Under the pieces are notes generated by a model that saw nothing but the letters and a program-made list of their open reading frames with translations, had not been told where the DNA came from and did no database searches. Of a stretch of 64,000 bases of DNA, positions 49-49,709 are shown piece by piece. Origin of the DNA: Escherichia phage BF17; sequence record MW822008.1. One strand, written 5' to 3'. A program made the translations under genes and the position numbers. Every line of letters begins with the position of its first letter. The first letter of the stretch is position 1.

Positions 49-432
49 ATGATAAACGATGTAATGCTTTATGTATTAATTACTCCGATTCTTATTAACT
101 CAGTAATAACTATTTCAATGGCATTATTTGGTATAGTAGCAATTGTTTATGCGGTTAGTACTGGAAAGTATACTTTAATTAGTAAGGTTGATTCATGGTT
201 CGCATCTGATAGTGTACCATATTCAGCTAGTATGATTACGATTGGTATTCTAATCGTTGCATTTACACTGCACTGTATTGGTTTTATTAATACAAGTATT
301 TTTTCAGTTTTTATTGGTCTATCATTATATCCATCACTTTGGTACTTGATTTATGTAATCGATGTTTGGTATAATAACTACAAGCAGTACAAAGTGAAGA
401 AATCCATTTTATCCAAAGGAAACAAATCATGA
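49..432 (+). CDS. hypothetical membrane protein
   Basis: 127-aa ORF, strongly hydrophobic with several TM-like segments; stop overlaps next start. Confidence 0.55.
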   Translation: MINDVMLYVLITPILINSVITISMALFGIVAIVYAVSTGKYTLISKVDSWFASDSVPYSASMITIGILIVAFTLHCIGFINTSIFSVFIGLSLYPSLWYLIYVIDVWYNNYKQYKVKKSILSKGNKS

Positions 433-779
433 AAGTAATTTTGTTTTTTGTTTGTATGATTATATGTGGTATGTCTTATGCAGAACCATTACCTGGACTA
501 GTCTGTACTGAAGGTGATATTAAACACATTTACCAAGGTGATAGCGATGACCATACTATCGTTTATATCGATGGTGAAGTGTATAATTTTGTTAAAGAAC
601 ATACTGTAGGTGACATTAGTTTTACGCAGTACTCGAATGATACTGATCCCAATATGCTTGCATTTCTTCAAGTTGATGTATATGAAGAAAGTAATGGCGA
701 ACAGTATGTTAAACTTGTGATGATGCGTAAGGCAGCAAAACAGGCAACATTCGGTGGCTTGTGTAAATATGAGGACTAA
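429..779 (+). CDS. small secreted protein
   Basis: 116 aa; N-terminal signal-peptide-like MKVILFFVCMIICGMSYA; translationally coupled to upstream ORF. Confidence 0.6.
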   Translation: MKVILFFVCMIICGMSYAEPLPGLVCTEGDIKHIYQGDSDDHTIVYIDGEVYNFVKEHTVGDISFTQYSNDTDPNMLAFLQVDVYEESNGEQYVKLVMMRKAAKQATFGGLCKYED

Positions 780-783
780 ACAT

Positions 784-975
784 ATGTTGATTTATCAATG
801 TGATAACATTCGTGTTATGCAGCATCCATACTTACAAATCTTTGATGTGCAGCAGTATATGGAAGGTGATGATCCAAGAACCTATGGTCGTAAGTATGAT
901 TACTTCACTGTAAAGCAGTGTCGTGACATCAAAGAAGTACGACAATTAGTTCAAGAACTTCAAAATAAAGGTTGA
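784..975 (+). CDS. hypothetical protein
   Basis: ORF 754-975 trimmed to ATG 784, which follows GAGGA; ends in terminator hairpin. Confidence 0.45.
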   Translation: MLIYQCDNIRVMQHPYLQIFDVQQYMEGDDPRTYGRKYDYFTVKQCRDIKEVRQLVQELQNKG

Positions 976-1003
976 CTTCGGTCAACCTTTTTTGTTATAA
1001 TTA
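969..1003 (+). terminator. hairpin terminator with embedded -35 TTGACT and downstream TATAAT
   Basis: AGGTTGACTTCGGTCAACCT + T-run, then TTATAAT ~17 nt after TTGACT. Confidence 0.6.
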
Positions 1004-1030
1004 TTTCATCAACTACTGGGGATTTTAATT

Positions 1031-1471
1031 ATGTACGTATATCGTTTTGAACTTAAATTCAGTTATATTGAACCTAACTTAGATCCAGCAAAAACAGTAG
1101 GGCCGTTCGCACGGTACTCTTCACGATACAGTACTAAAAATGGATTTGACCGTTTGTGCATGACCACGCCTTCGCAATTCCAACCAGAACCAACTGAAGA
1201 TGGAATCTATTCAATCAAACGTGGCTGGGCATTTGGCTGTCAGAGTTTGAATGATTTGTTTAAGTTCTTTACTATGGACTTGGGTAAATTACATCGTGCA
1301 GGGTTTGCTGTATCAGTATATGAAGTTCCTGATAATCATGTTGACATTGGTCGTAGTCAGGTTCAGTACTATTGTGGTAGTGCCAATCTGGTTCGTATTA
1401 TGTCAGTGAGAGAAGCAAAGGATGAGTACCGCCAAAGTAAAAGAGTAATACATGAGGCTGTATATGGATAA
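1031..1471 (+). CDS. hypothetical protein
   Basis: 146-aa ORF downstream of the terminator/promoter unit. Confidence 0.6.
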   Translation: MYVYRFELKFSYIEPNLDPAKTVGPFARYSSRYSTKNGFDRLCMTTPSQFQPEPTEDGIYSIKRGWAFGCQSLNDLFKFFTMDLGKLHRAGFAVSVYEVPDNHVDIGRSQVQYYCGSANLVRIMSVREAKDEYRQSKRVIHEAVYG

Positions 1472-1808
1472 GACTCAAATAGAATTAAAAAAATTTGTAT
1501 CGTTTTATCTACCCAATGACCCACGTTGTACACAATATGATGTTGCATATTACAATGCATTGACTACACAGTTAATGAAGAAATTCAAACAGTGCTTGAC
1601 TGTATTCAATGATGATGGTAGACGTAGATATAGAATCATTCCAATGAATGATGAAAACGATAACTACTTTGACTTTGATGTTGTTTTTCGAGCATACAAT
1701 GATGATAGAATAAAATTAAATTATGAGCAAATAATGCTTGACCTGAGTGTTATCTGTGTTATAATTACTCACATAGCCGAACTTGATGGTTTAAAAGAAT
1801 GGTATTAA
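1452..1808 (+). CDS. hypothetical protein
   Basis: 118-aa ORF; true start may be ATG 1464. Confidence 0.5.
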   Translation: MRLYMDKTQIELKKFVSFYLPNDPRCTQYDVAYYNALTTQLMKKFKQCLTVFNDDGRRRYRIIPMNDENDNYFDFDVVFRAYNDDRIKLNYEQIMLDLSVICVIITHIAELDGLKEWY

Positions 1809-1822
1809 CTTAGAGGATAATC

Positions 1823-2089
1823 ATGAAGCTTAAATTACAATACAATGGTTTTACTTTGCGTAACGACACTGAGTTTGTCAATCGTTCACCCGGTGCTGAG
1901 TTGTTTTTGCGAGAGATGAACATTCCTTTCGTCATCACTACTGTTGGTGACCGTGAAGTGCTACAATACGCAGAGCATCAAGTTATTGATGTTCCGTGGT
2001 ATTCTGAGCATATGTATATGGATATGGCCCGTCGCTACGACTGTAAGTTCGTAGTTGAAGGTGATAAAATTACAGTCCAATTCAAATAA
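1823..2089 (+). CDS. hypothetical protein
   Basis: 88-aa ORF, AGGA upstream. Confidence 0.55.
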   Translation: MKLKLQYNGFTLRNDTEFVNRSPGAELFLREMNIPFVITTVGDREVLQYAEHQVIDVPWYSEHMYMDMARRYDCKFVVEGDKITVQFK

Positions 2090-2100
2090 GGTAACTTAAA

Positions 2101-2394
2101 ATGATCAGTACTTCAGTAAATGCAAGCATCGTGGCAGACGTAGAAATGGTTAAAGAATGTACAGACGAAACCCTTCGCAACATGTACATCAATGATTTGA
2201 TTTCAGAGTACGGAAGTCGTGGTGTTCATGAGTTTGTTCGCCTAAGCGGTGAATTGATGAAGAATCGCATTCGTATGAAGCTTAATGTGCATCCAAAAGC
2301 ATGGGCGTTTACAATGAAGTACGCTGAAGATATTGTTGAGTTGCGTCGCAATGATGTGTATAATCGTTTACACAATGGTACATTAAAGGACTAA
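2101..2394 (+). CDS. hypothetical protein
   Basis: 97-aa ORF; followed by inverted repeat GGAATCC...GGATTCC. Confidence 0.55.
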   Translation: MISTSVNASIVADVEMVKECTDETLRNMYINDLISEYGSRGVHEFVRLSGELMKNRIRMKLNVHPKAWAFTMKYAEDIVELRRNDVYNRLHNGTLKD

Positions 2395-2444
2395 ATTATA
2401 GGAATCCGTAAAAGGATTCCTGTTCTTGTTTATAAGGTAATAAA

Positions 2445-2669
2445 ATGAAATATCTAGTACTAGTACTGCTATTCTTGAGTACTGTTGTATGTGCTAAACC
2501 AAAGTATCATGTAGTGTGTATCAACGAGATGGAAGGATATACTGAAACATATAAGAACCATATTGTTGAAGTTGCAGCCCAAGGTTCCTATGGGACCATC
2601 ATCTTCCTTAAGAACAATGTGATTGTTCAGTACAAAAAAGATTTAAATTGTAAAGTGACTAAAAAATGA
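2445..2669 (+). CDS. small secreted protein
   Basis: 74 aa; signal-peptide-like MKYLVLVLLFLSTVVCA. Confidence 0.55.
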   Translation: MKYLVLVLLFLSTVVCAKPKYHVVCINEMEGYTETYKNHIVEVAAQGSYGTIIFLKNNVIVQYKKDLNCKVTKK

Positions 2670-2739
2670 TCTAGATCAATTTTTCAGATATTCTCTGTAA
2701 ATAATAGCAGTACAGAACATTATTTTACGGAGGTGTAAT

Positions 2740-2976
2740 ATGGAAACTATAATCATCATATGTGCGTTGTTTGCATTTTTGGTAATGTGGTCACCAACAT
2801 TCATTGCATATAAAATGAAAAATAAAAATGCAGAAGCAATTATGTACGTAAACTTATGTTGCATACTAACTTATGGAATACTTTTATTCTTTACTGAATT
2901 TACATTAATCCCAGTAGTAGTTTGTTCATCAATGTTTATTTGGTTGTTTCTGCTTTATGAATCTATTAAAAAATAA
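2740..2976 (+). CDS. small membrane protein
   Basis: 78 aa, two hydrophobic helices; GGAGG upstream. Confidence 0.55.
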   Translation: METIIIICALFAFLVMWSPTFIAYKMKNKNAEAIMYVNLCCILTYGILLFFTEFTLIPVVVCSSMFIWLFLLYESIKK

Positions 2977-3030
2977 AAGATATAGGGTTGGTAATATGCC
3001 ATCCCTTTTACTTTATGTGGGGTTTAATTA

Positions 3031-3603
3031 ATGAATAGAAAAGGTAAGTTCAAAGTATCAAAGAAGAACAAAAGTTCTAGATTTAGACCTATAACTTTAA
3101 CTTTTAAGGCTAAAGAAGAATTAACTGCACTTAGTAAAAAGATAATTTCATCTAAGATTAAAGTATCATACGTAAATTCGGTAAAATTTCAGAAGGTTAA
3201 ACCACAAGACAAACTCATTTCACTTATATTTAAACGTAATGATTTTGAGATATTAGTAGATGATTATAGAGCCTATAATGCTGGATTCATTCATGTCACT
3301 TGTAATACCGAACTAACTGAGTTGGAACATTTGACATGTATCATAAGTGTAGATAACGGTGTGGTGAAGTACAATTTTTTACATTTTACCAATATCAATA
3401 ATGGAATGGGTGTACAATCCAGACCTATAGTACCTACATGTGATGTGACTAATTTAGCAAAGCTCAATGAAGAAGAATATTTTCAAGAAAGCATTGTAAC
3501 TGAGCATTTAGATGCTATAATAGCAACTTACAAAGAATGCATATGGGTTTTGAATGCGATAAAGCCCAAATTGTGTTTAATGAATGTCGTTCGTGATTTA
3601 TAA
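3031..3603 (+). CDS. hypothetical protein
   Basis: 190-aa ORF with Lys-rich N-terminus. Confidence 0.6.
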   Translation: MNRKGKFKVSKKNKSSRFRPITLTFKAKEELTALSKKIISSKIKVSYVNSVKFQKVKPQDKLISLIFKRNDFEILVDDYRAYNAGFIHVTCNTELTELEHLTCIISVDNGVVKYNFLHFTNINNGMGVQSRPIVPTCDVTNLAKLNEEEYFQESIVTEHLDAIIATYKECIWVLNAIKPKLCLMNVVRDL

Positions 3604-3616
3604 CTGGAGATGTAGT

Positions 3617-4060
3617 ATGGGTTGGATTAACGTTAATAGCATTGAACTAAATGAGCAAGACATATTTGCCTTTGTTAATTTGGTAGAGAACATTGCTATT
3701 AAAGGTCGTCTGTTTAGTTCATCGGACGGTAAAAAATGGATCTCTCTTATGAACGACAATGGCGAGATTTATGACGTTATGCAACTACCTCATTGGGCTT
3801 ATAAGAATACATCTGATGATGTGATGGCTGCTGTTATGCGTGAGTTTGAGAAGCTGCCAGGTGGTGATATTAAGAACATCGTATTCAATGCAGAACGCAT
3901 GAACTACACACCAGAGCAGCTTCAACAGTTGGCAATTGCTGCCTATCAAGCTGCCATTAAGAAACCTGAATGTGTGATATTAAAGTACACACCGAACTTG
4001 AAGTTAACATTAGAAGATATGGATTCCTTTATCTTCAGTTCAGAACTTAAACAGTACTGA
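3617..4060 (+). CDS. hypothetical protein
   Basis: ORF 3584-4060 trimmed to ATG 3617 after GGAG. Confidence 0.55.
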   Translation: MGWINVNSIELNEQDIFAFVNLVENIAIKGRLFSSSDGKKWISLMNDNGEIYDVMQLPHWAYKNTSDDVMAAVMREFEKLPGGDIKNIVFNAERMNYTPEQLQQLAIAAYQAAIKKPECVILKYTPNLKLTLEDMDSFIFSSELKQY

Positions 4061-4171
4061 TTTGACTTTGGAACAACCATTTCATATGTGATATAATCTT
4101 AAGTGTCTGTTGAAATAAACAGCACATGAAGTATAAATATTAAAGTAATTTATCTCTTTAAGGAGTATGAA

Positions 4172-4555
4172 ATGGTTGATAAATGGAATAAGAAAGATCC
4201 ATCGCATGATGTGGATATTTCTGGAATTGATAATGCACATAAGCATAAGTATCTTGATTCACTAGGTCTACTAAAGCCTGACCAAAGTCTTGCACATGAT
4301 CGTCCTTCACGTGAAAAAGCTTTCAGTCTAGAATCACTAGGCCATGAATTGAATCGTGTATTTGAAGATCATCCAATTTATGTACGTGATATCATTGAGA
4401 AACTTAAAGTGACTCCTAAAGAGCACTTCAAGGCAACAGTACACGCAGCATTCCGTGCACTACATGAAGCACTAAAGAAAACTCATAACCTTCGCAAGAT
4501 TCATGATGACATCGTGAACTCTATTGAAGGCGAAAAACATAAGTTTAAAAAATAA
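4172..4555 (+). CDS. hypothetical protein
   Basis: 127 aa; AAGGAG upstream; shares SLGLL motif with 5403-6914. Confidence 0.6.
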   Translation: MVDKWNKKDPSHDVDISGIDNAHKHKYLDSLGLLKPDQSLAHDRPSREKAFSLESLGHELNRVFEDHPIYVRDIIEKLKVTPKEHFKATVHAAFRALHEALKKTHNLRKIHDDIVNSIEGEKHKFKK

Positions 4556-4561
4556 TTAAAA

Positions 4562-4595
4562 GGGGTTGACTTCAGTCAGCCCTTTGTCGTATAAT
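4562..4595 (+). terminator. hairpin terminator with embedded -35 and downstream TATAAT
   Basis: GGGGTTGACTTCAGTCAGCCC then TATAAT. Confidence 0.6.
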
Positions 4596-4642
4596 ATTTT
4601 CATCAAGTGATACAAAATACAAACAACGTGAGGTATTAAATT

Positions 4643-4756
4643 ATGCAAGGTACTAAATTCATCATCGCTGCCCTAATCGCTGCTGTTGTAGTGGGTACAG
4701 TATGTTATTCAATTGACACCTATATCAATACACCTAGTGTTGAACAAACCAAATAA
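4643..4756 (+). CDS. small hydrophobic peptide
   Basis: 37-aa ORF below track cutoff; GAGG upstream; single TM-like helix. Confidence 0.35.
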   Translation: MQGTKFIIAALIAAVVVGTVCYSIDTYINTPSVEQTK

Positions 4757-4764
4757 GGGATATC

Positions 4765-5028
4765 ATGGCTGAAACATTATCACTATATGCGTTAGTACTG
4801 TTATTTGTCGGATTTCTTCCCGCACTCATTACCGCCATTCGTGTTGTTAAACATGAAGCTGCATTGATTGTATGTAGTATTGGGTCGAACATTCTATTGT
4901 ATTTCTTTTTGACAAATACTATTGTACTGTTTGCTTTCTTTATCATGATTCTCTGGGTACTTGTAATTCTCGGATTCTTCATTTGGTCATTGGTTGATCC
5001 TAAGAAAAAATCAGGAGAAGTGAAATGA
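4765..5028 (+). CDS. small membrane protein
   Basis: 87 aa, three hydrophobic segments. Confidence 0.55.
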   Translation: MAETLSLYALVLLFVGFLPALITAIRVVKHEAALIVCSIGSNILLYFFLTNTIVLFAFFIMILWVLVILGFFIWSLVDPKKKSGEVK

Positions 5029-5321
5029 AATTAATTATTGCAATGATGATGTGTTTGGCTTTCCCTGTACTGGCTACTCCTAATCTGGACTGCACACTGT
5101 TGCGTTCAGATGGTGACACACTTGAAATCAACACATATGAACTCTTTGGTCCAAGTGTAGTGGAGAATGAAACCACCTACAATTTCAAAGCTATTGACTT
5201 TGAAGGTAATGTTCCAGTACTAACTACAATGACTATTGACAAAACTACTTTACTCGGACGAATCACCACACAACGAGGTGAAAGTAAAACATTCACAGCG
5301 AAAGCTGACTGTAACTACTAA
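5025..5321 (+). CDS. small secreted protein
   Basis: 98 aa; signal-peptide-like MKLIIAMMMCLAFPVLA; overlapping stop/start. Confidence 0.6.
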   Translation: MKLIIAMMMCLAFPVLATPNLDCTLLRSDGDTLEINTYELFGPSVVENETTYNFKAIDFEGNVPVLTTMTIDKTTLLGRITTQRGESKTFTAKADCNY

Positions 5322-5342
5322 TGGTATAGTACAGTGAAAATA

Positions 5343-5380
5343 GGGTTGACTTCGGTCAACCTTTTCTTTATACTATAAAT
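5343..5380 (+). terminator. hairpin terminator with embedded -35
   Basis: GGGTTGACTTCGGTCAACC + T-run. Confidence 0.55.
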
Positions 5381-5402
5381 ATAGTCATAGAGAATAAACA
5401 AT

Positions 5403-6914: not shown

Positions 6915-6923
6915 ACATTTAAA

Positions 6924-6957
6924 AGGTTGACTTCGGTCAACCTTTTTTTGTAAATAT
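6924..6957 (+). terminator. hairpin terminator with embedded -35
   Basis: AGGTTGACTTCGGTCAACCT + TTTTTTT. Confidence 0.6.
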
Positions 6958-6985
6958 TGTAGAGGGTTTTATAAGAGGTAATGCA

Positions 6986-7237
6986 ATGTTTAAATATGTT
7001 TTATTTTCACTTGTATTGTTTACTGATATAGTTTATAGTACTGAATACCAGTGCTCCATTGCTAGACAGGAGTTTAGAAACGGTGAGTTCTATACCAAGT
7101 CTTACACTAGAGGATTGGTACATGACAATAATAAAACTATAGGGTTCAATGCATTTGATAACAAAGATCGATATACGTCTGGAATACTATCTGAACGTAA
7201 GTCGGATATACTAGGTATCGAGCGTGAATTCCGGTGA
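6986..7237 (+). CDS. small secreted protein
   Basis: 83 aa; signal-peptide-like N-terminus. Confidence 0.5.
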   Translation: MFKYVLFSLVLFTDIVYSTEYQCSIARQEFRNGEFYTKSYTRGLVHDNNKTIGFNAFDNKDRYTSGILSERKSDILGIEREFR

Positions 7238-7598
7238 CACGGTTGCAATGTGTAATGATATTGAGAGTACTAAGAAAGTATATACTAATGGTGAAAATAC
7301 CTTTAGATTCCACAATCTTACTACCAATGAAAGTTTATACTTCTACAACTGTAAAGAGTTCATTAAACCTGCGGATAACTCATGTGATATGCCGGAGCCA
7401 AAAGCTGCTGTATGTGAGGAACCACAATCTAAAGCTGACAAAGATTCAAAAGATAAGAAAGACAAAGCTGACAAATCGGATAAAAAAGAAAACAAAAAGA
7501 AAGCTAAAGATGATAAAGATAAAAAGTCCCCTAAGCCAAATCCATTTGAAAAGCCAAAGAATGAAAAGCCAAAACCAGACATGACATGTAAAATATAA
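7224..7598 (+). CDS. Cys-containing protein with Lys/Asp-rich tail
   Basis: 124 aa; overlaps 6986-7237 by 14 nt in another frame. Confidence 0.45.
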   Translation: MNSGDTVAMCNDIESTKKVYTNGENTFRFHNLTTNESLYFYNCKEFIKPADNSCDMPEPKAAVCEEPQSKADKDSKDKKDKADKSDKKENKKKAKDDKDKKSPKPNPFEKPKNEKPKPDMTCKI

Positions 7599-7606
7599 AA
7601 GAAAAG

Positions 7607-7639
7607 GGTTGACTTCGGTCGGCCCTTTTTGCTATAATC
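7607..7639 (+). terminator. hairpin terminator with embedded -35 and TATAAT
   Basis: GGGTTGACTTCGGTCGGCCC TTTTTGC TATAAT. Confidence 0.6.
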
Positions 7640-7664
7640 ATTTCATCAACTACTGGAGGCAAAC

Positions 7665-8078
7665 ATGTTAAAAGTTATTTTCCGTTCTATCAGTTCATTA
7701 CTTCTTATGATTAGTTCAGTTTGTTATGCAAATGAAGTATCTGATTTATTTGAGAAGAATTACCCAACTGCACAAGAGATGGGTGTTTTAAAATGCAAGC
7801 TAACTTCGTACAACATCATCGGCAGTAAACTTGTACTGGAACATGAACGTAGTACACCAATCCCTCTAGTAGAAGAAGGTAGTACCTTTAGCTTCAAGTA
7901 CGGGGTGAATGTAACATCTGGTGTAATGAACAATGTTGATGCAGAGACTGGTTCAACATGGAGTACTAGCGGTAAAGATGTGTTTCATCGTATGCGTGAA
8001 AATGGTAAACTGAAGTACGTATATGAAAGTTCATTCATGAAACGTGTATTCATTATAAAAAATTGTGTACCAGCATAA
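7665..8078 (+). CDS. secreted protein
   Basis: 137 aa; signal-peptide-like MLKVIFRSISSLLLMISSVCYA. Confidence 0.6.
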   Translation: MLKVIFRSISSLLLMISSVCYANEVSDLFEKNYPTAQEMGVLKCKLTSYNIIGSKLVLEHERSTPIPLVEEGSTFSFKYGVNVTSGVMNNVDAETGSTWSTSGKDVFHRMRENGKLKYVYESSFMKRVFIIKNCVPA

Positions 8079-8089
8079 GGAACAACATC

Positions 8090-8365
8090 ATGCGTTCATT
8101 TGAAAACTTAATCGGTAAACTTCGCTTACAAGAAATTGAAGCTGATGTGAAGGAATTATCTGAAACTAAGAGTTACATTCATTTAGATGAACTGTTTATT
8201 AAGTACGGTGAGATTGGTTTTAAGTCATTATTTGTTTTTGTCATGAAGGTGCATAGTTTAAAGTACTTTGATTTGAGTTCAAAAGACGGACAACCAAATC
8301 TGTATTACATGTATTATCTTAAGAACATAGACGAAGCTAATACATTATTCTTAGAATATATGTAG
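8090..8365 (+). CDS. hypothetical protein
   Basis: ORF 8063-8365 trimmed to ATG 8090. Confidence 0.5.
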   Translation: MRSFENLIGKLRLQEIEADVKELSETKSYIHLDELFIKYGEIGFKSLFVFVMKVHSLKYFDLSSKDGQPNLYYMYYLKNIDEANTLFLEYM

Positions 8366-8374: not shown

Positions 8375-8713
8375 ATGGAACAACATTTTGAATTAATTAA
8401 TAAGGTATCATTTTATGTAGTATCGTTAATTTGGGTGTATTACATGTTTTGTTACATTATTGCATTCTTCCGATACACGACCTTGTATCAACGCATATAC
8501 TACGATGCACCAATTTCATTTTTGATGTTCAGTGCATGTACGTGGGGGATAATTGAAGCACTGGTATGTGGATATAGTACGGACGAATTAAATCTCGTAT
8601 CGGTGTTGACATTACTAACAATTGCTACTATGATAGCTACAGTTCCGATATTTTTGCTCTTTAAACTGCTTCATCGCATCGATGAGTGGCGTAATAAAAT
8701 CCCTGAAAAGTAA
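8375..8713 (+). CDS. small membrane protein, paralog family (cluster A)
   Basis: 112 aa, hydrophobic, basic tail WRNKIPEK. Confidence 0.6.
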   Translation: MEQHFELINKVSFYVVSLIWVYYMFCYIIAFFRYTTLYQRIYYDAPISFLMFSACTWGIIEALVCGYSTDELNLVSVLTLLTIATMIATVPIFLLFKLLHRIDEWRNKIPEK

Positions 8714-8716: not shown

Positions 8717-9064
8717 TTGATAATGATTTTTTACACTAATGCGTTTGCTTATGCCGTTGCATCAATCTACATTGTGTACTTCTTATTTGGTGGAGTACTG
8801 TACTTCTTTAAGTACAAAACATTGTTTAACCGAATGTATCCAAATCACCCAATTGTAGTAGTACTTTTGATTATTTCTGTTGCTCACATCATTGTAGAAA
8901 CAATAATGGGTATTAGTGCAGTACATTACAGTCTAGGTACTATTGTAATTATTACTATGATCATCGCATACATTTTAGTAATGGGTTCTGGTTTATTTGG
9001 GAATGTAGCAATGAAAATGTATAATCGAATCAAAACATTACGTGATAATCTACCGGAGCGTTGA
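8717..9064 (+). CDS. small membrane protein, paralog family (cluster A)
   Basis: 115 aa, tail LRDNLPER. Confidence 0.6.
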   Translation: MIMIFYTNAFAYAVASIYIVYFLFGGVLYFFKYKTLFNRMYPNHPIVVVLLIISVAHIIVETIMGISAVHYSLGTIVIITMIIAYILVMGSGLFGNVAMKMYNRIKTLRDNLPER

Positions 9065-42303: not shown

Positions 42304-42308
42304 CTAAT

Positions 42309-42889: not shown

Positions 42890-42900
42890 TAAGGTATACT

Positions 42901-43107: not shown

Positions 43108-43227
43108 TTCAACATATAGACAGGGGAAGCTCCGCAGGGAAAGCATTGGACAGGCTTTAACATATGTTATATATGTTAAAATTCAGCCTGGACAAATGCG
43201 ATCACTAGGATTCTCCCCAGGCTAAAC

Positions 43228-43520: not shown

Positions 43521-44194
43521 TTACTTTCACCTTAATTTCAATTACCCTTTTACCCGTCGGGGTAAAATTCAATTACCCCTTGAGGCTCCAGAAAAAAGTT
43601 GGTTAGTACTCCATCCTAAATCTCGATCCTAAAAATTTTGGAGTACCTATGAAATAAAAGTTGGATCTTCGAAAGTTGAAATTTACGTTGGGACGTTTAT
43701 GATTTGTGGGATATAATGATGTTTGTAGACGGGTAGTTCTCAAGAATATCAGTACTGAATAATGAAAGAAAGTTATTGACATTATGATTCAGTACTGTAT
43801 AATGTTCTACATAGCTTCAAGGGTGATGAGTTGCTGCGAACAATTCATTTACTCTACCTCCTGTCGTGAGACAGTACAGAAAAGATAGTTCCTCCTGTGG
43901 TGGTACATCTTTTTGAACCTCATATGAAAATCGTAATAACAGTACTGATATTAACAGAATGGTGTCAGTACTGATTTTAATCTAAAGCATTATGCCACCA
44001 GCACAAGCTGGTGGATTCCCTCTAACAGTATTCAGTACTACATGATAGTCTTCATCCTCCTAGGGTAACATAGTGAGGGCTATGATGGCAGTACTGAATA
44101 CTCCCTTTCAAAAGATAGATCTATGGTATAGTACTGACGGATTTTGGGCGTAGTTACCCTGGATGGATTTTGGACGTAGATATGTCTAGCCCTC

Positions 44195-44335
44195 CAGAAG
44201 TCTGGAAGTAAAGATGGCTATCCATCTAGACGGCTAAACGGCTAGATTTCTGGATGGCTAGATGGCTAGACGTTTGGACGGCTAAACGGCTAGATGGTTA
44301 CACGTCTGGAAGTATAGACGGCTAAATCAAAATTT
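44195..44335. repeat. iteron-like cluster of GGCTA(A/G)A / ACGGCTA repeats
   Basis: GGCTA nine times in ~130 bp. Confidence 0.55.
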
Positions 44336-45081
44336 TATTTTGTTTTTCCAATAGTTCCCCTACCGCGTGGGGATAGTTTCCCCGCAGTATCTGGAGTTAG
44401 ATTTTTCTGAATCTGGAATCATTATCTTATAAACTGGGGGCAATGTCAACGACCTGGACGGATATTTTTAAAAATTTTTTCAGTACTGAATTTTGGGCGT
44501 AACTATGCACCCGGTGGGCTTGAGTCTTTCTCGACTTGATGGAACTATTATACAGTACTGAAAAAATAAAGCAATACCCTGGAAGCAAAAAAGTTTTAAT
44601 TAATTTGCTTGCTATCCTGGGCCGGACTATGGTACTATATTTCAGTACTGAGAAAGTGCGTTTACCTGCTAGGGTGCGGGAGTGTATCCTTTTTTTATAT
44701 CTTGAATTTTGGGCGTAATTTCGCACCCTCTGGGGTTTCCGCTTTCTCGCGTCTATGTAGTAATTATACGCTTTTTCAGGATCAAGTCAATACCTAAAAA
44801 CAAAATAATTGAAAATAATTTAACGCGTTTAAACGGCCCGTAAAGCCCTGGAATGATTGGAATGGTGCAAATGTATAGCTTATGTGTATTAATGCGTTAG
44901 AATGCGTCTGAGGCCGTTTTACGGGGTATGGGGATGATTTGGTGGATTGATTCAGTACTGAATAATAGTACTACTATATAGAAAGATAGTTCCCCTGGAT
45001 GGTTGCAGTACTGAATGATAGTACTGAATAATAGTTCCCCTATATAGAAAGAAAACTATTTTAAAAGTATTTGTAGAAAGT

Positions 45082-45142
45082 ACTTGCAAACTAAGTTTAA
45101 CGGCGTATAATGTTTTACATCGAGAGCGGGAACACTTCCCGC
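45082..45142 (+). promoter_or_regulatory. early-type sigma70-like promoter with leader hairpin
   Basis: ACTTGCAAACTAAGTTTAACGGCG TATAAT ... GCGGGAACACTTCCCGC. Confidence 0.6.
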
Positions 45143-45166
45143 TACATATTACGAGAGATTAAAACG

Positions 45167-45529
45167 ATGGCGACTCAAATCACTAAAATTATTGCTAACC
45201 TGGTTAACTTTCGCGACGAGATGAAAGATCTTCCGGCAGAAACGGTAAAAATTCACATTTCAGCTTATCGGGAACTTATTGCAATGTTACCGCTTAAGCG
45301 TGAACAATACGCCGCGACCGTGATGCTTGATGCGATGATCCATAAGATGATCGCCAGTGATTTAACGATGGTTTATCAGTATATGGGCGAAAATTTCGCG
45401 GTGTATAGTAAACCAGTACCAGGAATGGAAAGTACAGAAGTATTACACGGTTTAAATTTAAAACAAGATGCATGGGATAATATGCCTCGTTTCCTGGTAT
45501 GGGCTGACAGTGGCAAAATTTACGAATAA
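45167..45529 (+). CDS. hypothetical protein
   Basis: ORF 45110 trimmed to MATQITK; the longer reading starts inside the promoter. Confidence 0.6.
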   Translation: MATQITKIIANLVNFRDEMKDLPAETVKIHISAYRELIAMLPLKREQYAATVMLDAMIHKMIASDLTMVYQYMGENFAVYSKPVPGMESTEVLHGLNLKQDAWDNMPRFLVWADSGKIYE

Positions 45530-45541
45530 GTTTAATAAAGT

Positions 45542-45602
45542 ACTTGCAAACTAAGTTTAAAAGCGTATAATACTTTACATCAGGTGGGGAATAGTTCCCC
45601 AC
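45542..45602 (+). promoter_or_regulatory. early-type promoter with leader hairpin
   Basis: TACTTGCAAACTAAGTTTAAAAGCG TATAAT; hairpin GGGGAATAGTTCCCC. Confidence 0.6.
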
Positions 45603-45623
45603 TATAATTAAGAGATTAATTTT

Positions 45624-45857
45624 ATGAGTACTATTTTAACTGTTTCTCAATCCGTTGCACTGACTGACCTATTAAACGCTTTAAGCCGTTGCACTGAGGT
45701 TGGCTTGTTTGATGTGGTTGACGTTGCACCGGACGTTATTAATCATTTTTGTGATGCGATGGAAGAATGTAAGGAAGATGATAGCCGTATGATGGCGGTC
45801 GCCTTTGAGGAAGTACAGCCGGGTGAGATCAAAGGTTTACCAGTACTGAAAAAATAG
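45624..45857 (+). CDS. hypothetical protein
   Basis: 77-aa ORF after promoter/hairpin. Confidence 0.6.
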   Translation: MSTILTVSQSVALTDLLNALSRCTEVGLFDVVDVAPDVINHFCDAMEECKEDDSRMMAVAFEEVQPGEIKGLPVLKK

Positions 45858-45918
45858 TACTTGCAAACTAAGTTTAAAAGCGTATAATACTTTCTATCAG
45901 GTGGTGAATAGTTCCCCA
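45858..45918 (+). promoter_or_regulatory. early-type promoter with leader hairpin
   Basis: near-identical copy of 45542 unit. Confidence 0.6.
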
Positions 45919-45939
45919 CTATATAAGAGGATTAAAAAA

Positions 45940-46179
45940 ATGGCTAAATCAAAAATGTTCTTAGGTCACAAAAACAAAACTCATTGGAATGTAAGCCTTT
46001 GGATTAATAACGATGAGTCATTGTACCGGTTGGCCCAGGACTTTATTAATGATAGCACTAATCGCAATGATGCGGCCCGTCATATGATGCTATTTTTAGA
46101 ACAGACTGGACAAGATAAAACACCGGACGGATTCAAATATAGCACTACTGCGATCCGTGCGGCGATGGTTGGAATGTAA
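45940..46179 (+). CDS. hypothetical protein, paralog of 47980-48219
   Basis: trimmed to MAKSK; shares GHKNKT.WNVSLWINN and PDGFKYSTTAIRAAMVGM. Confidence 0.6.
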   Translation: MAKSKMFLGHKNKTHWNVSLWINNDESLYRLAQDFINDSTNRNDAARHMMLFLEQTGQDKTPDGFKYSTTAIRAAMVGM

Positions 46180-46265
46180 TAGAATTTATTTAAAGTACTA
46201 TCATTTTTTTGCGATAGTACTTTATAATAGTGTTTTATTCATACACCAACGATAAGGGTAACAGC

Positions 46266-46532
46266 ATGAATATTAAGTATTTTGCGACGCGTGAACAAGC
46301 TCGGATCGCCGCACGCCAGGACGGGGCAACGTTTAAAGATATGGGAGCGGGATCGGCAAGTGGTGAACGTTGGGCCATTGTAAAGCGTAGTACCGCCAGA
46401 TCATTACAGTACTGGTTAGCGGCGTTAAAAAGTCCCGATAGTGTATCGCGTCGAGTGGTAGAAATAAAGCTCGACCGAAAGGGCAACCGCGTGACCGTGT
46501 ACCGTACTAAAAAGATTGCAGTACTTGAATAA
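46266..46532 (+). CDS. hypothetical protein, paralog of 58638-59033
   Basis: trimmed to MNIKYFATREQARIAARQDG; shares DRKGNRVTVY. Confidence 0.6.
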   Translation: MNIKYFATREQARIAARQDGATFKDMGAGSASGERWAIVKRSTARSLQYWLAALKSPDSVSRRVVEIKLDRKGNRVTVYRTKKIAVLE

Positions 46533-46536
46533 AAAG

Positions 46537-46598
46537 TACTTGCAAACTATGTTTAATGGCGTATAATGTTTTACATCGAGAGCGGGAACACTTCCCGC
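46537..46598 (+). promoter_or_regulatory. early-type promoter with leader hairpin
   Basis: ACTTGCAAACTATG...TATAAT...GCGGGAACACTTCCCGC. Confidence 0.6.
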
Positions 46599-46619
46599 CT
46601 ATAACCTGGAGTAATAAAA

Positions 46620-46850
46620 ATGACTAATATGTATATGACTGAAGTTAAAACCGTAAAAGATACTACCACGAATAAAACTACTTACTTACAGCGGATCTGC
46701 GGTGTATGGCAACGTATCAGCAAATCAAAGTACTTTAAATTAACATCATATGCAAACCGTTCGGATTCATTCAGTACTGAAATAAAAGGTAATAAAGTAC
46801 ACCAATACGGCACTTATTATTATTATAGCCTGGACGCGATTGCAGTATAA
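46620..46850 (+). CDS. hypothetical protein
   Basis: 76-aa ORF, GGAG upstream. Confidence 0.55.
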   Translation: MTNMYMTEVKTVKDTTTNKTTYLQRICGVWQRISKSKYFKLTSYANRSDSFSTEIKGNKVHQYGTYYYYSLDAIAV

Positions 46851-47092
46851 GCAGTTTACAAATCTTTACAATTGCCGGTATTGACTTATTTTGTCAGTAC
46901 TGGCATAATGTATTCATTGGCAGATAAGCCGTAGCCCATAGGGTGCGGGAGTGTATCTATAGAAAAAGTAGTTTATTACAGTTACAATTGTGCACCCGGT
47001 GGGTTAGCTGTTGTCATGGGGTATATTATGCCAGTACTTGATAATGCTGTCAATACTTTTTTTACTATTCAGTACTGAAAACTATTTTTAAA

Positions 47093-47130
47093 AAGTACTT
47101 GCAAACTATGTTTAAAGGCGTATAATGTTT
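47093..47130 (+). promoter_or_regulatory. early-type promoter driving a non-coding leader
   Basis: ACTTGCAAACTATGTTTAAAGGCG TATAAT; no ORF before the next promoter. Confidence 0.55.
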
Positions 47131-47215
47131 TACATCAGGACGGGGAACGAAATAAGTAACTCCCCGTTAAGTAGCCCAGGAGTAAGGCACACGAAAAACT
47201 CCCCTGATAAAATAG
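47131..47215 (+). ncRNA. candidate small RNA / structured leader, copy 1
   Basis: ~85-nt conserved block CAGGACGGGGAACGAAA.AAGTAAC.CCCGTTAAGTAG.CCAGGAGTAAG...CCCCTGATAAAA; second copy at 57447-57525. Confidence 0.4.
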
Positions 47216-47262
47216 TTTGACAAATGTTTTTAAAAGCGTATAATACTTACATCAACTACTGA
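47216..47262 (+). promoter_or_regulatory. promoter upstream of 47277
   Basis: TTGACA ... TATAAT before GAGGG and ATG. Confidence 0.45.
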
Positions 47263-47276
47263 ATGAGGGTTACAAA

Positions 47277-47888
47277 ATGAAAACTATCACTACTACTACT
47301 TTCGTTATGGATTTTTCTGAATTGAACGCAGAACAAAAAACGTCAGCTATCGAACTGGTTCGGGAACGTGAAAAAAACTTAAACGATGATTATTTTTCTG
47401 AAAGTGAAATTGAATACTATAAAGAAACAGTACTACCGGAATATGGCATTAATGACGCTGATTTACGTTTCAGTGGCTTTTGGTCCCAGGGTGACGGTGC
47501 ATCAATCAGTACTGACCACGTTGACGCAGTGAAGTTTTTACGCAAGGTAAGAGCATTAACTAAGTATCGCTCAATCCGTCACTTGCTGAATGAAGATGAT
47601 TTGGCGATGAGTGTAAAGCGTTCTCACTCCCACTACTCGCATGAAAACACTGTAAGCGGGTACATTGAATCGGCTTACACTGATTTAACCGCAAAACAAG
47701 AAACGTTAGTTAATGAGCTTGAGGAACTACTCACTGAAACTATTCGTGAATTATCCCGCAAGTTGTACCGTGATTTAGAGAATGCATATGAGGATCAATT
47801 CACTACTGAAAACATTACGGCACTGATTGAGGGTAACGAATATCAATTCAATGTTATTGATGGCGTAGTAGAATCAATCGAATATTAA
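47277..47888 (+). CDS. hypothetical acidic protein
   Basis: 203-aa ORF. Confidence 0.65.
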   Translation: MKTITTTTFVMDFSELNAEQKTSAIELVREREKNLNDDYFSESEIEYYKETVLPEYGINDADLRFSGFWSQGDGASISTDHVDAVKFLRKVRALTKYRSIRHLLNEDDLAMSVKRSHSHYSHENTVSGYIESAYTDLTAKQETLVNELEELLTETIRELSRKLYRDLENAYEDQFTTENITALIEGNEYQFNVIDGVVESIEY

Positions 47889-47896
47889 TTTAAAAA

Positions 47897-47960
47897 AGTA
47901 CTTGCAAACTAAGTTTAAAAGCGTATAATACTTTATATCGAGGCGGGGAGTGGTTCCCCG
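47897..47960 (+). promoter_or_regulatory. early-type promoter with leader hairpin
   Basis: ACTTGCAAACTAAG...TATAAT; hairpin GCGGGGAGTGGTTCCCCGC. Confidence 0.6.
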
Positions 47961-47979
47961 CTCAAACGAGGATTTAAAA

Positions 47980-48219
47980 ATGGCTAGTTCTAAAACTTAC
48001 AACGGGCACAAAAACAAAACTCAATGGAATGTAAGCCTTTGGATTAATAACGGTGAGTCATTGTATCGGCTTGCACAAAGTTGTATCGCACAAAGTAGAA
48101 CTAAAGATATTGCAGCGGAATGTATGTACCGCAGATTAAAAGCCAACGGTACTACTACAACGCCGGACGGTTTTAAGTATAGCACTACTGCGATCCGTGC
48201 TGCAATGGTTGGAATGTAA
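47980..48219 (+). CDS. hypothetical protein, paralog of 45940-46179
   Basis: trimmed to MASSKTYNGHKNKTQWNVSLWINN. Confidence 0.6.
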   Translation: MASSKTYNGHKNKTQWNVSLWINNGESLYRLAQSCIAQSRTKDIAAECMYRRLKANGTTTTPDGFKYSTTAIRAAMVGM

Positions 48220-48276
48220 TATTCAGTACTGAGATAATGGCGGGTAATAGTTCCCGCCTTTACTGAGGGTTATCTA

Positions 48277-48537
48277 ATGAGTAAAGTAATAAAGTACAAT
48301 GTGTTAAGCAAATCATTGTCTATCAGTGAATGCACCGATGGTTTTTGGATGTACGATGAAACGCGTGGCATGAATTTAGCTATGCGTGCAAAAACTGCTG
48401 AGGCGGCGTATATTCAAGCACTGGAATACTACCAGGAACGTTTAAAGGAAGTAGAAGAAGATTATAAAAGCCTCAAAGCGAAAGTAGATCATTTCGTCGG
48501 TCAATTCATCGAGGAAGACGACGACAAACAATATTGA
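48277..48537 (+). CDS. hypothetical protein
   Basis: 86-aa ORF, GAGGG upstream. Confidence 0.55.
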   Translation: MSKVIKYNVLSKSLSISECTDGFWMYDETRGMNLAMRAKTAEAAYIQALEYYQERLKEVEEDYKSLKAKVDHFVGQFIEEDDDKQY

Positions 48538-48540
48538 AAA

Positions 48541-48606
48541 AGTACTTGCAATTAGTTTTCAGTACTGTATAATGGTTTACATCAAAGGGAGAAATGGTTC
48601 TCCCTG
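48541..48606 (+). promoter_or_regulatory. early-type promoter with leader hairpin
   Basis: ACTTGCAATTAG...TATAAT; hairpin GGGAGAAATGGTTCTCCC. Confidence 0.6.
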
Positions 48607-48623
48607 GTAATGAGGAAAATAAA

Positions 48624-48845
48624 ATGGCTAATATCACTACTCTTTCCCAACTGGAAGCACTGGTTAAATCTATGCGGGAACATGCCGACAAAATCGGCGT
48701 ACAAGATCCAGCCGTTTGCTTCTGCGACGAATTGAATGATGATACCCTGGTAATAGCAGAAGTCCAGGACGTTTCTAACTATTCATCGCGTTACACTGGC
48801 GGCGTAGCAAATAAAGGTGACTTCTGTTTATACCTTACAAAATAA
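48624..48845 (+). CDS. hypothetical protein
   Basis: trimmed to MANITTLSQ. Confidence 0.55.
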   Translation: MANITTLSQLEALVKSMREHADKIGVQDPAVCFCDELNDDTLVIAEVQDVSNYSSRYTGGVANKGDFCLYLTK

Positions 48846-49009
48846 CAACGCGGGGAGATAATAACTCCCCGTTACTTTTTCAGTACTGAATCATTTAATA
48901 GACGGATCTATGCACCCGGTGGGTTAGTGACTGTTTCGTCTTGATGTAGTAATTATGCCAGTACTGGATGCACTTGTCAACAACTATTTTTCAAATACTT
49001 TTTATTAAA

Positions 49010-49068
49010 ATACTTGCAATTAGTTTTTAAACGCGTATAATGTTTTGCATAGGGGGAGCGGTTCCCCT
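49010..49068 (+). promoter_or_regulatory. early-type promoter with leader hairpin
   Basis: ACTTGCAATTAG...TATAAT; hairpin GGGGGAGCGGTTCCCC. Confidence 0.6.
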
Positions 49069-49088
49069 GGTAACTAAGGAATAATAAA

Positions 49089-49325
49089 ATGCTTGAACAA
49101 ATCAAATCAACGTCTTCGAATGTAACGGGAACGGTAGCACACTTTACTAGTGATGAATCGCGGGGCGTTCCCTATTGTGCTGTACATGTAAACACTGAGG
49201 GTAACTACTGGTTTACGGTTTACGGATCATATTCATTTGGACGGCCAGGGCATCAAAAAATTCTGGATAAAGTACAACCAACGGGTAAAAATATCACTGC
49301 TGAAATGTTTTATAAAAAATCATAA
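49089..49325 (+). CDS. hypothetical protein
   Basis: 78-aa ORF. Confidence 0.55.
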   Translation: MLEQIKSTSSNVTGTVAHFTSDESRGVPYCAVHVNTEGNYWFTVYGSYSFGRPGHQKILDKVQPTGKNITAEMFYKKS

Positions 49326-49326
49326 A

Positions 49327-49390
49327 GTACTTGATAATAGTTTTTAGTACTGTATAATATTTTACATCGCAAGGGGGAGCGGTTCCCCCT
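49327..49390 (+). promoter_or_regulatory. early-type promoter with leader hairpin
   Basis: ACTTGATAATAG...TATAAT; hairpin GGGGGAGCGGTTCCCCC. Confidence 0.55.
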
Positions 49391-49409
49391 GGTAACTAAG
49401 GATAATCAA

Positions 49410-49709
49410 ATGAAAATTGCAATCATCGCCCTGGCTTTATCTGTTTCCTCTTTCGCTGTTAATGCGTCATTAGATGTAAGTAGTGAAAAATTCATTCAGT
49501 GCACTGTTGCAATGACCGATGAAAGTACTGGCGAGATTGTTTTAAAGGATTTAGAGATCCAGCCGGAAGCATTTAAAAACGGGCCGTTCCATGAAGAAGA
49601 CGAAAAAGGTAGCACGACAATTTATTACGATGCAAGTACTAAACGCGGTTCGGTCACTGTTATGGATACTGAGAAAGTAACTCATACTGGCGTTATTAAT
49701 TGCCGTTGA
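49410..49709 (+). CDS. small secreted protein
   Basis: 99 aa; signal-peptide-like MKIAIIALALSVSSFAVNA. Confidence 0.6.
   Translation: MKIAIIALALSVSSFAVNASLDVSSEKFIQCTVAMTDESTGEIVLKDLEIQPEAFKNGPFHEEDEKGSTTIYYDASTKRGSVTVMDTEKVTHTGVINCR

Follow-up and report, generated by a model that had tools for sequence, protein, structure and literature searches.

In the analysed stretch of Escherichia phage BF17 DNA (the window, 64,000 nt) we found six small genes, sp1 to sp6 (Table 1), whose products are very likely exported to the periplasm of the host. There they might act as binders or inhibitors, a complete reading, functional role included, that we put forward only tentatively. The source is a jumbo coliphage of the 121Q/PBECO4 type (Asteriusvirus), a type in which all six genes are conserved. 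A first-pass annotation of the window had claimed at least six small proteins with signal peptides, and its six ORFs proved to be real: they lie at exactly the coordinates it gave, on the + strand and with ATG starts, all of them are annotated CDSs in the closest phage records, and all bear signal-peptide features. Purine-rich Shine-Dalgarno-like sequences precede the six genes, that of sp5, which lies beyond the position limit of the SD scan, having been read from the sequence and the annotation.

Table 1. Positions in the window of the six genes, their small membrane neighbours and the nearby regulatory motifs; signal peptides and cleavage sites are predicted.
Feature	Position	Strand	Description
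127-aa membrane protein	49..432	+	three-TM inner-membrane protein; TM segments and junction sequence; stop overlaps sp1 start (ATGA)
sp1	429..779	+	116 aa; signal peptide 429-482 (after SYA18); mature 98 aa, Cys8 and Cys94
sp2	2445..2669	+	74 aa; signal peptide 2445-2495 (after VCA17); mature 57 aa, Cys8 and Cys52
78-aa membrane protein	2740..2976	+	three-TM small membrane protein; downstream of sp2
sigma70-like promoter	4566..4595	+	TTGACT-18-TATAAT; 11/12 matches, a consensus match only; before the 4643/4765/sp3 operon
37-aa protein	4643..4756	+	single-TM; first gene in the sp3 operon
87-aa membrane protein	4765..5028	+	three-TM; stop overlaps sp3 start (ATGA)
sp3	5025..5321	+	98 aa; signal peptide 5025-5075 (after VLA17); mature 81 aa, Cys6 and Cys79
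hairpin	5342-5363		downstream of sp3
sp4	6986..7237	+	83 aa; signal peptide 6986-7039 (after VYS18); mature 65 aa, single Cys5
sigma70-like promoter	7609..7638	+	TTGACT-18-TATAAT, flagged TG-extended; 27 nt upstream of sp5
sp5	7665..8078	+	137 aa; signal peptide 7665-7730 (after CYA22); mature 115 aa, Cys22 and Cys112
early-promoter cassette	49306..49393	+	before sp6; -35 TTGATA 49331-49336, -10 TATAAT 49353-49358, GC hairpin 49373-49389
Shine-Dalgarno sequence	49398-49402		AAGGA; between the promoter cassette and sp6
sp6	49410..49709	+	99 aa; signal peptide 49410-49466 (after VNA19); mature 80 aa, Cys12 and Cys79

Each of the six proteins begins as a Sec/signal peptidase I substrate does, with Lys or Arg in the n-region and, as its core, a hydrophobic stretch of about 9-13 uncharged residues, and in none of them is there a later transmembrane (TM) segment downstream of the signal peptide. 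The h-region of sp4 is short and is followed by Asp14, and its ortholog in 121Q is canonical. Small neutral residues are kept at the predicted cleavage site across orthologs (A/G/S at -1, A/V/S/T/C at -3), and in diverged orthologs the features of the signal peptide are preserved while its sequence drifts, which argues for export. Three further observations point the same way: an invariant cysteine pair, which makes sense only in an oxidising compartment; two predicted folds that match periplasmic barrel proteins; and the sp6 homolog of Klebsiella phage Muenster, annotated as a 'putative secreted protein', for which InterPro gives SignalP N, H and C regions and a non-cytoplasmic domain. The signal peptides are probably cleaved.

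We also scanned all ORFs of the window on both strands, internal start codons included, with a rule-based heuristic for signal peptides. The scan gave no further convincing candidate of at least 60 aa, and therefore 'at least six' is effectively six within the window; antisense and off-frame ORFs, multi-TM proteins and a weak amphipathic case at 51801-52124 were discarded. Of about 131-146 genes derived from ORFs, only these six are clean candidates for a Sec signal peptide, and five of them lie within the first 22 genes of the window (hypergeometric P = 4.7e-4, post hoc). The earlier remark that the phage encodes many exported proteins was right and even understated, as further members and true lipoproteins are encoded in relatives and immediately upstream of the window; among the lipobox proteins elsewhere in these genomes are g526 and g528 of fEgEco12 and two proteins of EJP2.

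Five of the six proteins have exactly two cysteines in the mature domain, one near the mature N-terminus and the other 1-5 residues from the C-terminus, a pair that even homologs of about 31% identity retain without exception. In the 121Q ortholog of sp2, for instance, which is 51% identical, both mature cysteines are kept and that of the signal peptide is lost. In the models of sp1 and sp5 the two residues, invariant in all homologs, fall on the first and last predicted strands. A disulfide probably ties the first and last strands together in the five proteins. The exception is sp4, in which the second cysteine is missing. We rejected the possibility that sp4 is the N-terminal half of a frameshifted two-Cys protein running into 7224/7248-7598, because its 83-aa length and its stop are conserved in 121Q and SHEFM2K, where the next gene is separate.

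The predicted models of sp1 and sp5 are compact, all-beta, up-and-down barrels with the eight antiparallel strands of the MliC/PliC fold (PF09864), and we consider it likely that both proteins adopt a barrel. MliC and PliC are periplasmic inhibitors of c-type lysozymes and have Neisseria ACP and Brucella PhiA as fold relatives; the four belong to a group of periplasmic lysozyme or peptidoglycan-hydrolase inhibitors with the same barrel architecture as the two models. Relative to MliC/PliC, the sp5 model has an additional N-terminal helix and a ninth strand; the sp genes also differ in being carried by phages, in their hypervariability and in their frequent pairing with genes for small membrane proteins. 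Sequence homology to MliC/PliC was rejected since sequence, profile and motif tests all failed: for the six proteins there was no match to the PF09864 profile at E <= 1, profile-profile comparison gave hhalign probabilities of at most 1.2%, shuffle tests gave p > 0.14 for all six, and a regex search found in none of them SxSGAxY or YxxxTKG, the lysozyme-binding motifs of MliC/PliC (PMC5507604). Other small beta-barrel enzyme inhibitors, namely BtaiB (PDB 9jdd), a periplasmic T6SS immunity protein, and the staphostatins, resemble the sp proteins at the level of the fold only; there is no sequence link, and the likeness comes from a model of moderate confidence. The sp proteins matched no known defence or NCBIfam family.

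The six proteins fall into at least four sequence families. The only significant pair in shuffle tests was sp3 and sp6 (z = 5.8), sp4 being marginal; iterative local HMM searches connected sp1 only with the g539/gp188 type, and hhalign gave a probability of 0.2% for sp5 against sp1. A single paralogous family for all six is not supported, and a BLASTP E-value of 2e-4 in its favour arose from a database of seven sequences. The sp genes diverge faster than their neighbours and their presence varies among relatives: sp6 is present in 50 phage records, sp2 in 31 records with a bimodal distribution of identities, and sp3, an accessory gene, in only 10 phage records. In large databases the families are all but missing elsewhere: searches gave 8 clusters with sp6, 18 with the pooled alignment and, with sp5, 8 matches in 1.84 billion representatives. 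The prophage homologs of sp5 are neighboured by unknown proteins, a small terminase subunit and an 8xMP membrane protein, and we found no endolysin adjoining them. The genome papers of fEgEco12 and phAPEC6 do not mention signal peptides, lipoproteins or superinfection.

The sp genes sit among genes for small inner-membrane proteins, and two of them, sp1 and sp3, are joined to such a gene by an ATGA overlap. The 127-aa protein is a conserved partner of sp1, as Klebsiella phage KP13-7 has the two genes as a pair too (its membrane protein matches with a BLASTP E of 1e-12), while the 87-aa protein and sp3 are both missing from 121Q. So is the 78-aa protein downstream of sp2, to which vB_Ec-M-J attaches the label 'immunity to superinfection' on slight grounds: it scored 15.7 bits with Pfam Imm_superinfect (PF14373), under the 27.9-bit cut-off. 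The 87-aa protein had no Pfam match to T4 Imm (PF14373), a PHROG 'immunity to superinfection' match among these membrane neighbours reached E = 0.02, and the 78-aa and 87-aa proteins have no mutual similarity.

Because sigma70-type promoters lie upstream of sp3, sp5 and sp6, these genes are probably transcribed early by the host RNA polymerase, a timing that we read from promoter-like motifs. The cassette before sp6 is one of at least 15 copies in the terminal-repeat block; sp6 itself is within the direct terminal repeat, and its ortholog EcMJ_011 lies 6 kb inside a terminal repeat of 21.5 kb.

As for what the proteins do, the following course of events would fit. Signal peptidase I would remove the signal peptides, freeing soluble domains of 57-115 residues into the E. 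coli periplasm, and the host Dsb system would form the disulfide of the five two-Cys proteins, tying their first and last strands. With sp3, sp5 and sp6 (the last in the terminal repeat) transcribed early, and several sp genes co-transcribed or translationally coupled with small inner-membrane proteins, the products would be stable periplasmic binders or inhibitors, acting alone or docked on membrane partners, and would shield the envelope of the infected cell throughout the long jumbo-phage cycle. Their likeliest role would be superinfection exclusion, in which they neutralise what incoming phages use to enter the cell or to degrade its wall; the rapid divergence and the turnover of genes would then stem from an arms race with competing phages. 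The model would be T4, with Spackle as an inhibitor of the gp5 tail lysozyme and Imm active at the inner membrane. Spackle (gp61.3) is an alpha-helical bundle that acts in the periplasm, alongside Imm, against superinfecting phage (PMC7677548). It resembles the sp proteins as we predict them: a small phage product made early, it is directed to the periplasm by a signal that is cleaved off, and it has one disulfide. Its partner Imm is a small inner-membrane protein, as are the neighbours of the sp genes; however, the sp1 and sp5 models are all-beta, the 'Imm-like' neighbours score under the Pfam threshold, and no sp protein matched the Spackle family in PHROG or Pfam. Superinfection exclusion or envelope protection by whatever mechanism seems to us a possible role, to be held with reserve, and inhibition of peptidoglycan hydrolases in particular a rather unlikely one.

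The first-pass annotation had further proposed that the proteins modify the periplasm or the outer surface, for example by blocking receptors or altering the envelope. Its export part stands on the signal features, the cysteine pair, the predicted folds and the Muenster homolog. An outer-surface location is unlikely, as the proteins are too small and their strands too short for outer-membrane barrels, and a soluble periplasmic location, often beside small inner-membrane proteins, is the better reading; that they block receptors or alter the envelope we infer only. The proteins might still jam receptors or transporters from the periplasmic side, binding outer-membrane receptors or envelope machines and allosterically blocking adsorption or injection. 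T5 Llp binds FhuA at its periplasmic face. Llp is an early periplasmic exclusion protein of about 61 residues, similar in size to sp2, and its cysteines, one at residue 11 of the mature protein and the other 4 residues before the C-terminus, are laid out as in the sp proteins; Llp and Cor of T1/phi80 are, like these, small (about 60 aa mature) early phage envelope proteins facing the periplasm. Fast evolution would fit the tracking of receptors, and in fEgEco12 sp4 and two genes upstream of it are labelled 'lytic conversion lipoprotein', yet sp4 has no lipobox. Llp and Cor are lipidated outer-membrane lipoproteins, whereas the lipobox [LVI][ASTVI][GAS]C is absent at the signal-peptide end in all six proteins (orthologs of sp2 and sp5 do not retain the signal-peptide cysteine, and sp1 has a conserved Cys13 that comes after bulky residues), and therefore none is anchored in the outer membrane or of the Llp/Cor type. 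Moreover, similarity was not significant, either to Llp by shuffle test (best p = 0.011, for sp3, before correction for 8 tests) or to the Cor PHROG (E = 0.032, residues 1-50 of sp2), so that both lipoprotein status and Llp/Cor homology were rejected. No receptor-binding protein gene adjoins any of the six genes, and jamming is on the whole unlikely.

If the N-terminal segment stayed uncleaved, the sp proteins would be anchored in the inner membrane in type II orientation, with their domain in the periplasm. A simple hydropathy scan with a 19-residue window does call an N-terminal TM segment in sp1, sp2, sp3 and sp5, two distant sp5 relatives (P0151 and P0152) have longer N-terminal regions with no obvious cleavage motif, and the topology of T4 RI was long disputed. 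Such anchors are nevertheless decidedly unlikely, given that in every ortholog set the short uncharged core is followed by helix-breaking or polar residues and the small -3/-1 pair, and that InterPro annotates the Muenster homolog with all three regions. T4 RI is also the precedent for a control of lysis timing, in which the sp proteins would be periplasmic antiholin-like sensors or partners of holin- or spanin-like membrane proteins: RI is small and periplasmic, has a signal peptide that can be cleaved off and binds the periplasmic domain of the holin (PMC8385771), and several sp genes are coupled with small multi-TM proteins. This is improbable, since no endolysin and no recognisable holin or spanin adjoins the sp genes, six different proteins are too many for a single lysis switch, the predicted fold is all-beta, and the sigma70-like promoters and the position of sp6 in the terminal repeat suggest early rather than late expression. 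That the proteins are virion components or small outer-membrane beta-barrels is highly improbable: the sp orthologs are not among the 62 proteins of the published phAPEC6 virion proteome, in which products of flanking genes are found, the mature domains, at 57-115 aa, and most of their predicted strands, at 5-8 residues, fall short of what a membrane-spanning barrel needs, and a conserved cysteine pair from the first to the last strand is a trait of soluble MliC/PliC-type barrels (PMC5507604).

The six genes, read as periplasmic effectors, make up a concrete group of small proteins that would be early and exported; some have membrane partners, and the group bears the structural signature of signal peptide, terminal disulfide and small beta-barrel and shows signs of an arms race. 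To our knowledge, little is known on how jumbo phages handle the host envelope, and we know of only a handful of well-understood periplasmic phage effectors, from T-even and T5/T1 phages. If the proteins were inert in assays of exclusion or hydrolase inhibition, the finding would shrink to an ordinary set of exported ORFans; if they exclude other phages or inhibit hydrolases, some of the 'dark' accessory genome of the jumbo phages concerned would be accounted for, new stable periplasmic inhibitor scaffolds would be at hand, and the design of phage cocktails would be affected, as such phages could block co-administered ones. A bolder and unlikely extension is that Asteriusvirus and related jumbo phages hold a diversified arsenal of MliC/PliC-fold periplasmic barrels, often with dedicated membrane partners, each neutralising a different hydrolase or entry device of rival phages. 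Such an arsenal may share no detectable sequence with bacterial inhibitors, and its fold may not have been linked before to conflict between phages; if true, it would amount to a multi-specific, fast-evolving superinfection-exclusion system.

Six plus-strand ORFs of Escherichia phage BF17, here sp1 to sp6, had been read by the first-pass annotation as genes of small exported proteins that may modify the host envelope. All of them are present with ATG starts and correspond to annotated CDSs in the closest records. We considered as a signal peptide any N-terminus with a net positive n-region, an uncharged hydrophobic core and a small -3/-1 pair, in a protein with no later transmembrane (TM) segment. 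This rule-based screen covered about 131-146 greedy gene calls and picked all six proteins and nothing else convincing in the window; they were again the only convincing candidates when it was repeated with all the internal start codons on both strands. Down to about 31% identity, orthologs and distant homologs vary in the sequence of the signal peptide but retain its n/h/c organisation and small residues at -3/-1, and the sp6 homolog of Klebsiella phage Muenster is annotated, from InterPro signal-peptide regions, as a 'putative secreted protein'. The dN/dS values relative to the orthologs in phage 121Q (0.21-0.38) indicate purifying selection.

Coordinates of the six genes, with predicted cleavage sites (slash), and of the regulatory elements in the window
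Feature	Coordinates (nt)	Description	Basis
sp1	429-779	116 aa; SYA18/E	rule-based screen
sp2	2445-2669	74 aa; VCA17/K	rule-based screen
sp3	5025-5321	98 aa; VLA17/T	rule-based screen
sp4	6986-7237	83 aa; VYS18/T	rule-based screen
sp5	7665-8078	137 aa; CYA22/N	rule-based screen
sp6	49410-49709	99 aa; VNA19/S	rule-based screen
Promoter, sp5	7609-7638	TTGACT-18-TATAAT	consensus match
Promoter, operon of sp3 with TM-protein genes 4643 and 4765	4566-4595	TTGACT-18-TATAAT	consensus match
Hairpin, 4643/4765/sp3 operon	5342-5363		
88-nt cassette, example copies	45059-45146, 49306-49393, 53780-53867		
Recurrent perfect hairpin	967-1001, 5342-5374, 6921-6946, 53663-53722, 57269-57328	AAAGGTTGACTTCGGTCAACCTTT	

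The mature domains of five of the six proteins have exactly two cysteines each: one lies close to the mature N-terminus, the other 1-5 residues from the C-terminus. Of the targets, 5/6 have a cysteine within 7 residues of the C-terminus, versus 5/86 other small genes (Fisher P = 2.9e-5). Every homolog collected retains the pair, including the prophage relatives of sp5 and the Klebsiella and Salmonella phage relatives of sp6 and sp1; no such conservation is seen for cysteines within the signal peptides. The conserved exception is sp4, with a single cysteine, and a frameshift artefact was ruled out in this case, its 83-aa length and stop codon being conserved. A signal peptide plus a conserved Cys pair in a domain of 60-115 residues is the pattern expected of a periplasmic, Dsb-oxidised protein. 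The observation of the first-pass annotation is confirmed and sharpened. Its interpretation is partly supported: the n/h/c organisation, the -3/-1 residues and, in five of them, the Cys pair support the six as real, probably exported proteins; the envelope function stays putative.

The treatment of the six as one detectable family was not supported by sequence comparisons. Precisely, sp1 groups with the g539/gp188-type proteins, the similarity between sp3 and sp6 is significant (z = 5.8; 0/2000 shuffles reached the score), sp4 shows marginal similarity to sp3 and sp6 alike, and sp2 and sp5 each stand alone in the family tests. The families (PHROGs of unknown function) occur very rarely beyond this phage group. 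In 5.8 billion sequences, 8 clusters matched sp6 and 18 the pooled profile; for sp5 there were 8 matches in 1.84 billion representatives, including two prophage genes between a serine recombinase and a terminase. Only 10 phage records contain sp3, the identity distribution of sp2 and sp5 is bimodal (about 9 records at >= 95% and 22 below 60%), and sp1, sp4 and sp6 extend to Klebsiella jumbo phages, sp6 also to a Vequintavirinae phage. Relative to 121Q, the sp genes are 40-78% identical or absent, whereas most neighbours are 79-97% identical. In the prophage of Enterobacter sp. BIGb0383 (L007:6322-7098) an sp5 homolog is divergent from an operon with a member of 8xMP (octameric membrane protein, PF24838), an arrangement suggestive of an accessory or conflict locus.

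Modelled by AlphaFold2 on shallow family alignments, mature sp5 has nine strands and a short helix, with good confidence (pLDDT 82.6, pTM 0.77), and sp1 has eight strands, with moderate confidence (pLDDT 69.2); in both models, the first and last strands carry the two cysteines. The MliC/PliC family of periplasmic c-type lysozyme inhibitors has an eight-stranded barrel with a beta1-beta8 disulfide, kept in ACP, St-PliC, Pa-MliC and Ba-PliC (PMC5507604), and the beta1-beta8 disulfide of the eight-stranded barrel is likewise preserved in PhiA (PMC8334348). E. coli MliC shares the Cys layout of the sp proteins, with 'YQC...' early in the sequence and '...NNC' seven residues before the C-terminus. 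One distant sp5 homolog has a lipobox (ILSGC) in place of the SPase I site, and this difference among sp5 relatives parallels the split between MliC (lipoprotein) and PliC (soluble). The six proteins have no match to Pfam PF09864 and contain neither the SxSGAxY nor the YxxxTKG motif; the pooled family profile had no match in a PDB sequence search, hhalign to MliC/PliC gave a probability <= 1.2%, and none of the shuffle tests against MliC/PliC was significant. In fold scores, generic barrels (Cap15, lipocalins, YceI, outer-membrane proteins, the T6SS immunity protein BtaiB, staphostatin) equal the MliC/PliC group, and Foldseek against viral models returned nothing but uncharacterised proteins from other large phages, of which two are annotated 'Lipoprotein'. 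We consider membership of the sp proteins in MliC/PliC as not established; no description of phage-encoded MliC/PliC-like proteins was found in the literature searched.

Over its first 9 kb the window has 99.2-99.4% identity with WPEC5, WPEC3, vB_Ec-M-J, fEgEco12 and other Escherichia phages, and about 86% with 121Q and PBECO4; these relatives are jumbo myoviruses (350-385 kb) of the genus Asteriusvirus. Since these 9 kb correspond to 314.7-323.7 kb of vB_Ec-M-J, and 48-52 kb to 2.5-8.7 kb inside its annotated 21.5-kb direct terminal repeat, the window extends from the right genome arm into the terminal repeat. Near the inner terminal-repeat boundary and a GC-skew switch at about 44 kb lies a tandem array of 8-nt period (GGCTAGAT / GGCTAAAC-like units, 44164-44323), which may have to do with the repeat boundary or with packaging.

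Five of the six signal-peptide proteins (hypergeometric P = 4.7e-4, post hoc) and six small TM proteins are encoded by the first 22 genes of the window, and the interleaving of the two kinds is also seen in 121Q and EJP2. One upstream three-TM gene each overlaps the starts of sp1 and sp3 by ATGA, another three-TM gene is downstream of sp2, and Klebsiella phage KP13-7 also keeps the TM+sp1 pair. The TM partner of sp1 (49-432) weakly matches the PADLOC '4TM effector' model PDLC00725 (E = 3e-4, 18 bits), probably by generic TM similarity. The cassette of three-TM gene and sp3 (4765-5321) and the three-TM gene after sp2 (2740-2976) are absent from 121Q and are thus insertion/deletion modules. In vB_Ec-M-J the three-TM genes at 2740-2976 and before sp3 are labelled 'immunity to superinfection' with sub-threshold support (Pfam, 15.7 vs 27.9 bits), and the two proteins have no similarity to each other.

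Around sp5 (7598-8090; L003:7711-8841 and L004:7754-9355 in relatives), three genes follow one another in SHEFM2K: an sp5 paralog of gp204 type, a protein kinase gene and an sp5 ortholog. 121Q retains the paralog and the kinase, and the window phage only sp5, without the kinase, which indicates reciprocal gene loss around a hypervariable spot. At 7248-7598 lies an ORF without a signal peptide, whose N-terminal part contains Cys and which has a long low-complexity tail rich in Lys, Asp and Glu; its identity to 121Q gp203 is only 46%, and it matched no family. Two tandem paralogous three-TM proteins of 112-113 aa (8375-8713 and 8723-9064; both phrog_19285 in the SHEFM2K annotation) extend the envelope-protein island past the six genes. 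Just upstream of the counterpart of the window's start, fEgEco12 encodes g526 (L006:44873-45124) and g528 (L006:45486-45761), with a true lipobox (LTAC) and annotated 'lytic conversion lipoprotein', and g539 (L006:48886-49251), a two-Cys signal-peptide protein of the sp1/gp188 type; comparable lipoproteins occur in EJP2 (L005:2224-2472 and L005:15219-15485). The exported repertoire is hence larger than six.

A copy of an 88-nt promoter/hairpin/Shine-Dalgarno cassette, present in at least 15 copies, precedes sp6. In the terminal-repeat block (44000-58000) nearly all small genes have the cassette in front of them. It consists of a sigma70-like promoter (AGTACTTGCAA...17 nt...TATAAT), 'TTTACATC', a GC-rich hairpin (GGGGAG..TTCCCC), SD and ATG, and has the look of a standardised unit for early-gene expression whose 5'-UTR hairpin is conserved. 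The recurrent perfect hairpins of the table have a TTGACT -35 box in the stem-loop, followed at some copies by a TATAAT-like -10, and look like combined terminator/promoter elements between genes. As the promoters are consensus matches, and sigma70-like matches as a class are not enriched over shuffles, we only infer early timing.

We propose that the sp proteins would be made early, exported by Sec and stapled by a disulfide, as periplasmic binders or inhibitors, and that some may act with dedicated inner-membrane partners. The most likely role would be superinfection exclusion or envelope protection, with T4 Spackle with Imm (PMC7677548) and T5 Llp (PMC9586334) as precedents. Receptor jamming is a rival to this role; no lipobox was found (0/6), and the outer surface, also named in the first-pass annotation, is an unlikely location. 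The most specific guess, drawn from the MliC/PliC-like architecture, is an inhibition of peptidoglycan hydrolases, which we hold to be rather improbable, weakened as it is by the missing lysozyme-inhibitor motifs and by PhiA, a protein of the same fold whose proposed target was not inhibited in vitro (PMC8334348). Control of lysis timing is a further rival.

Two other rivals concern location. In a signal-anchored topology the hydrophobic N-termini would stay in the membrane, and the kept -3/-1 residues speak for cleavage. It is very improbable that the proteins belong to the virion or the outer membrane; orthologs of sp1, sp2, sp4 and sp5 are absent among the 62 phAPEC6 virion proteins, in which both flanking genes are present. 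The sp families are so far unannotated, and the six proteins would belong with an already known kind, the small early periplasmic phage effectors.
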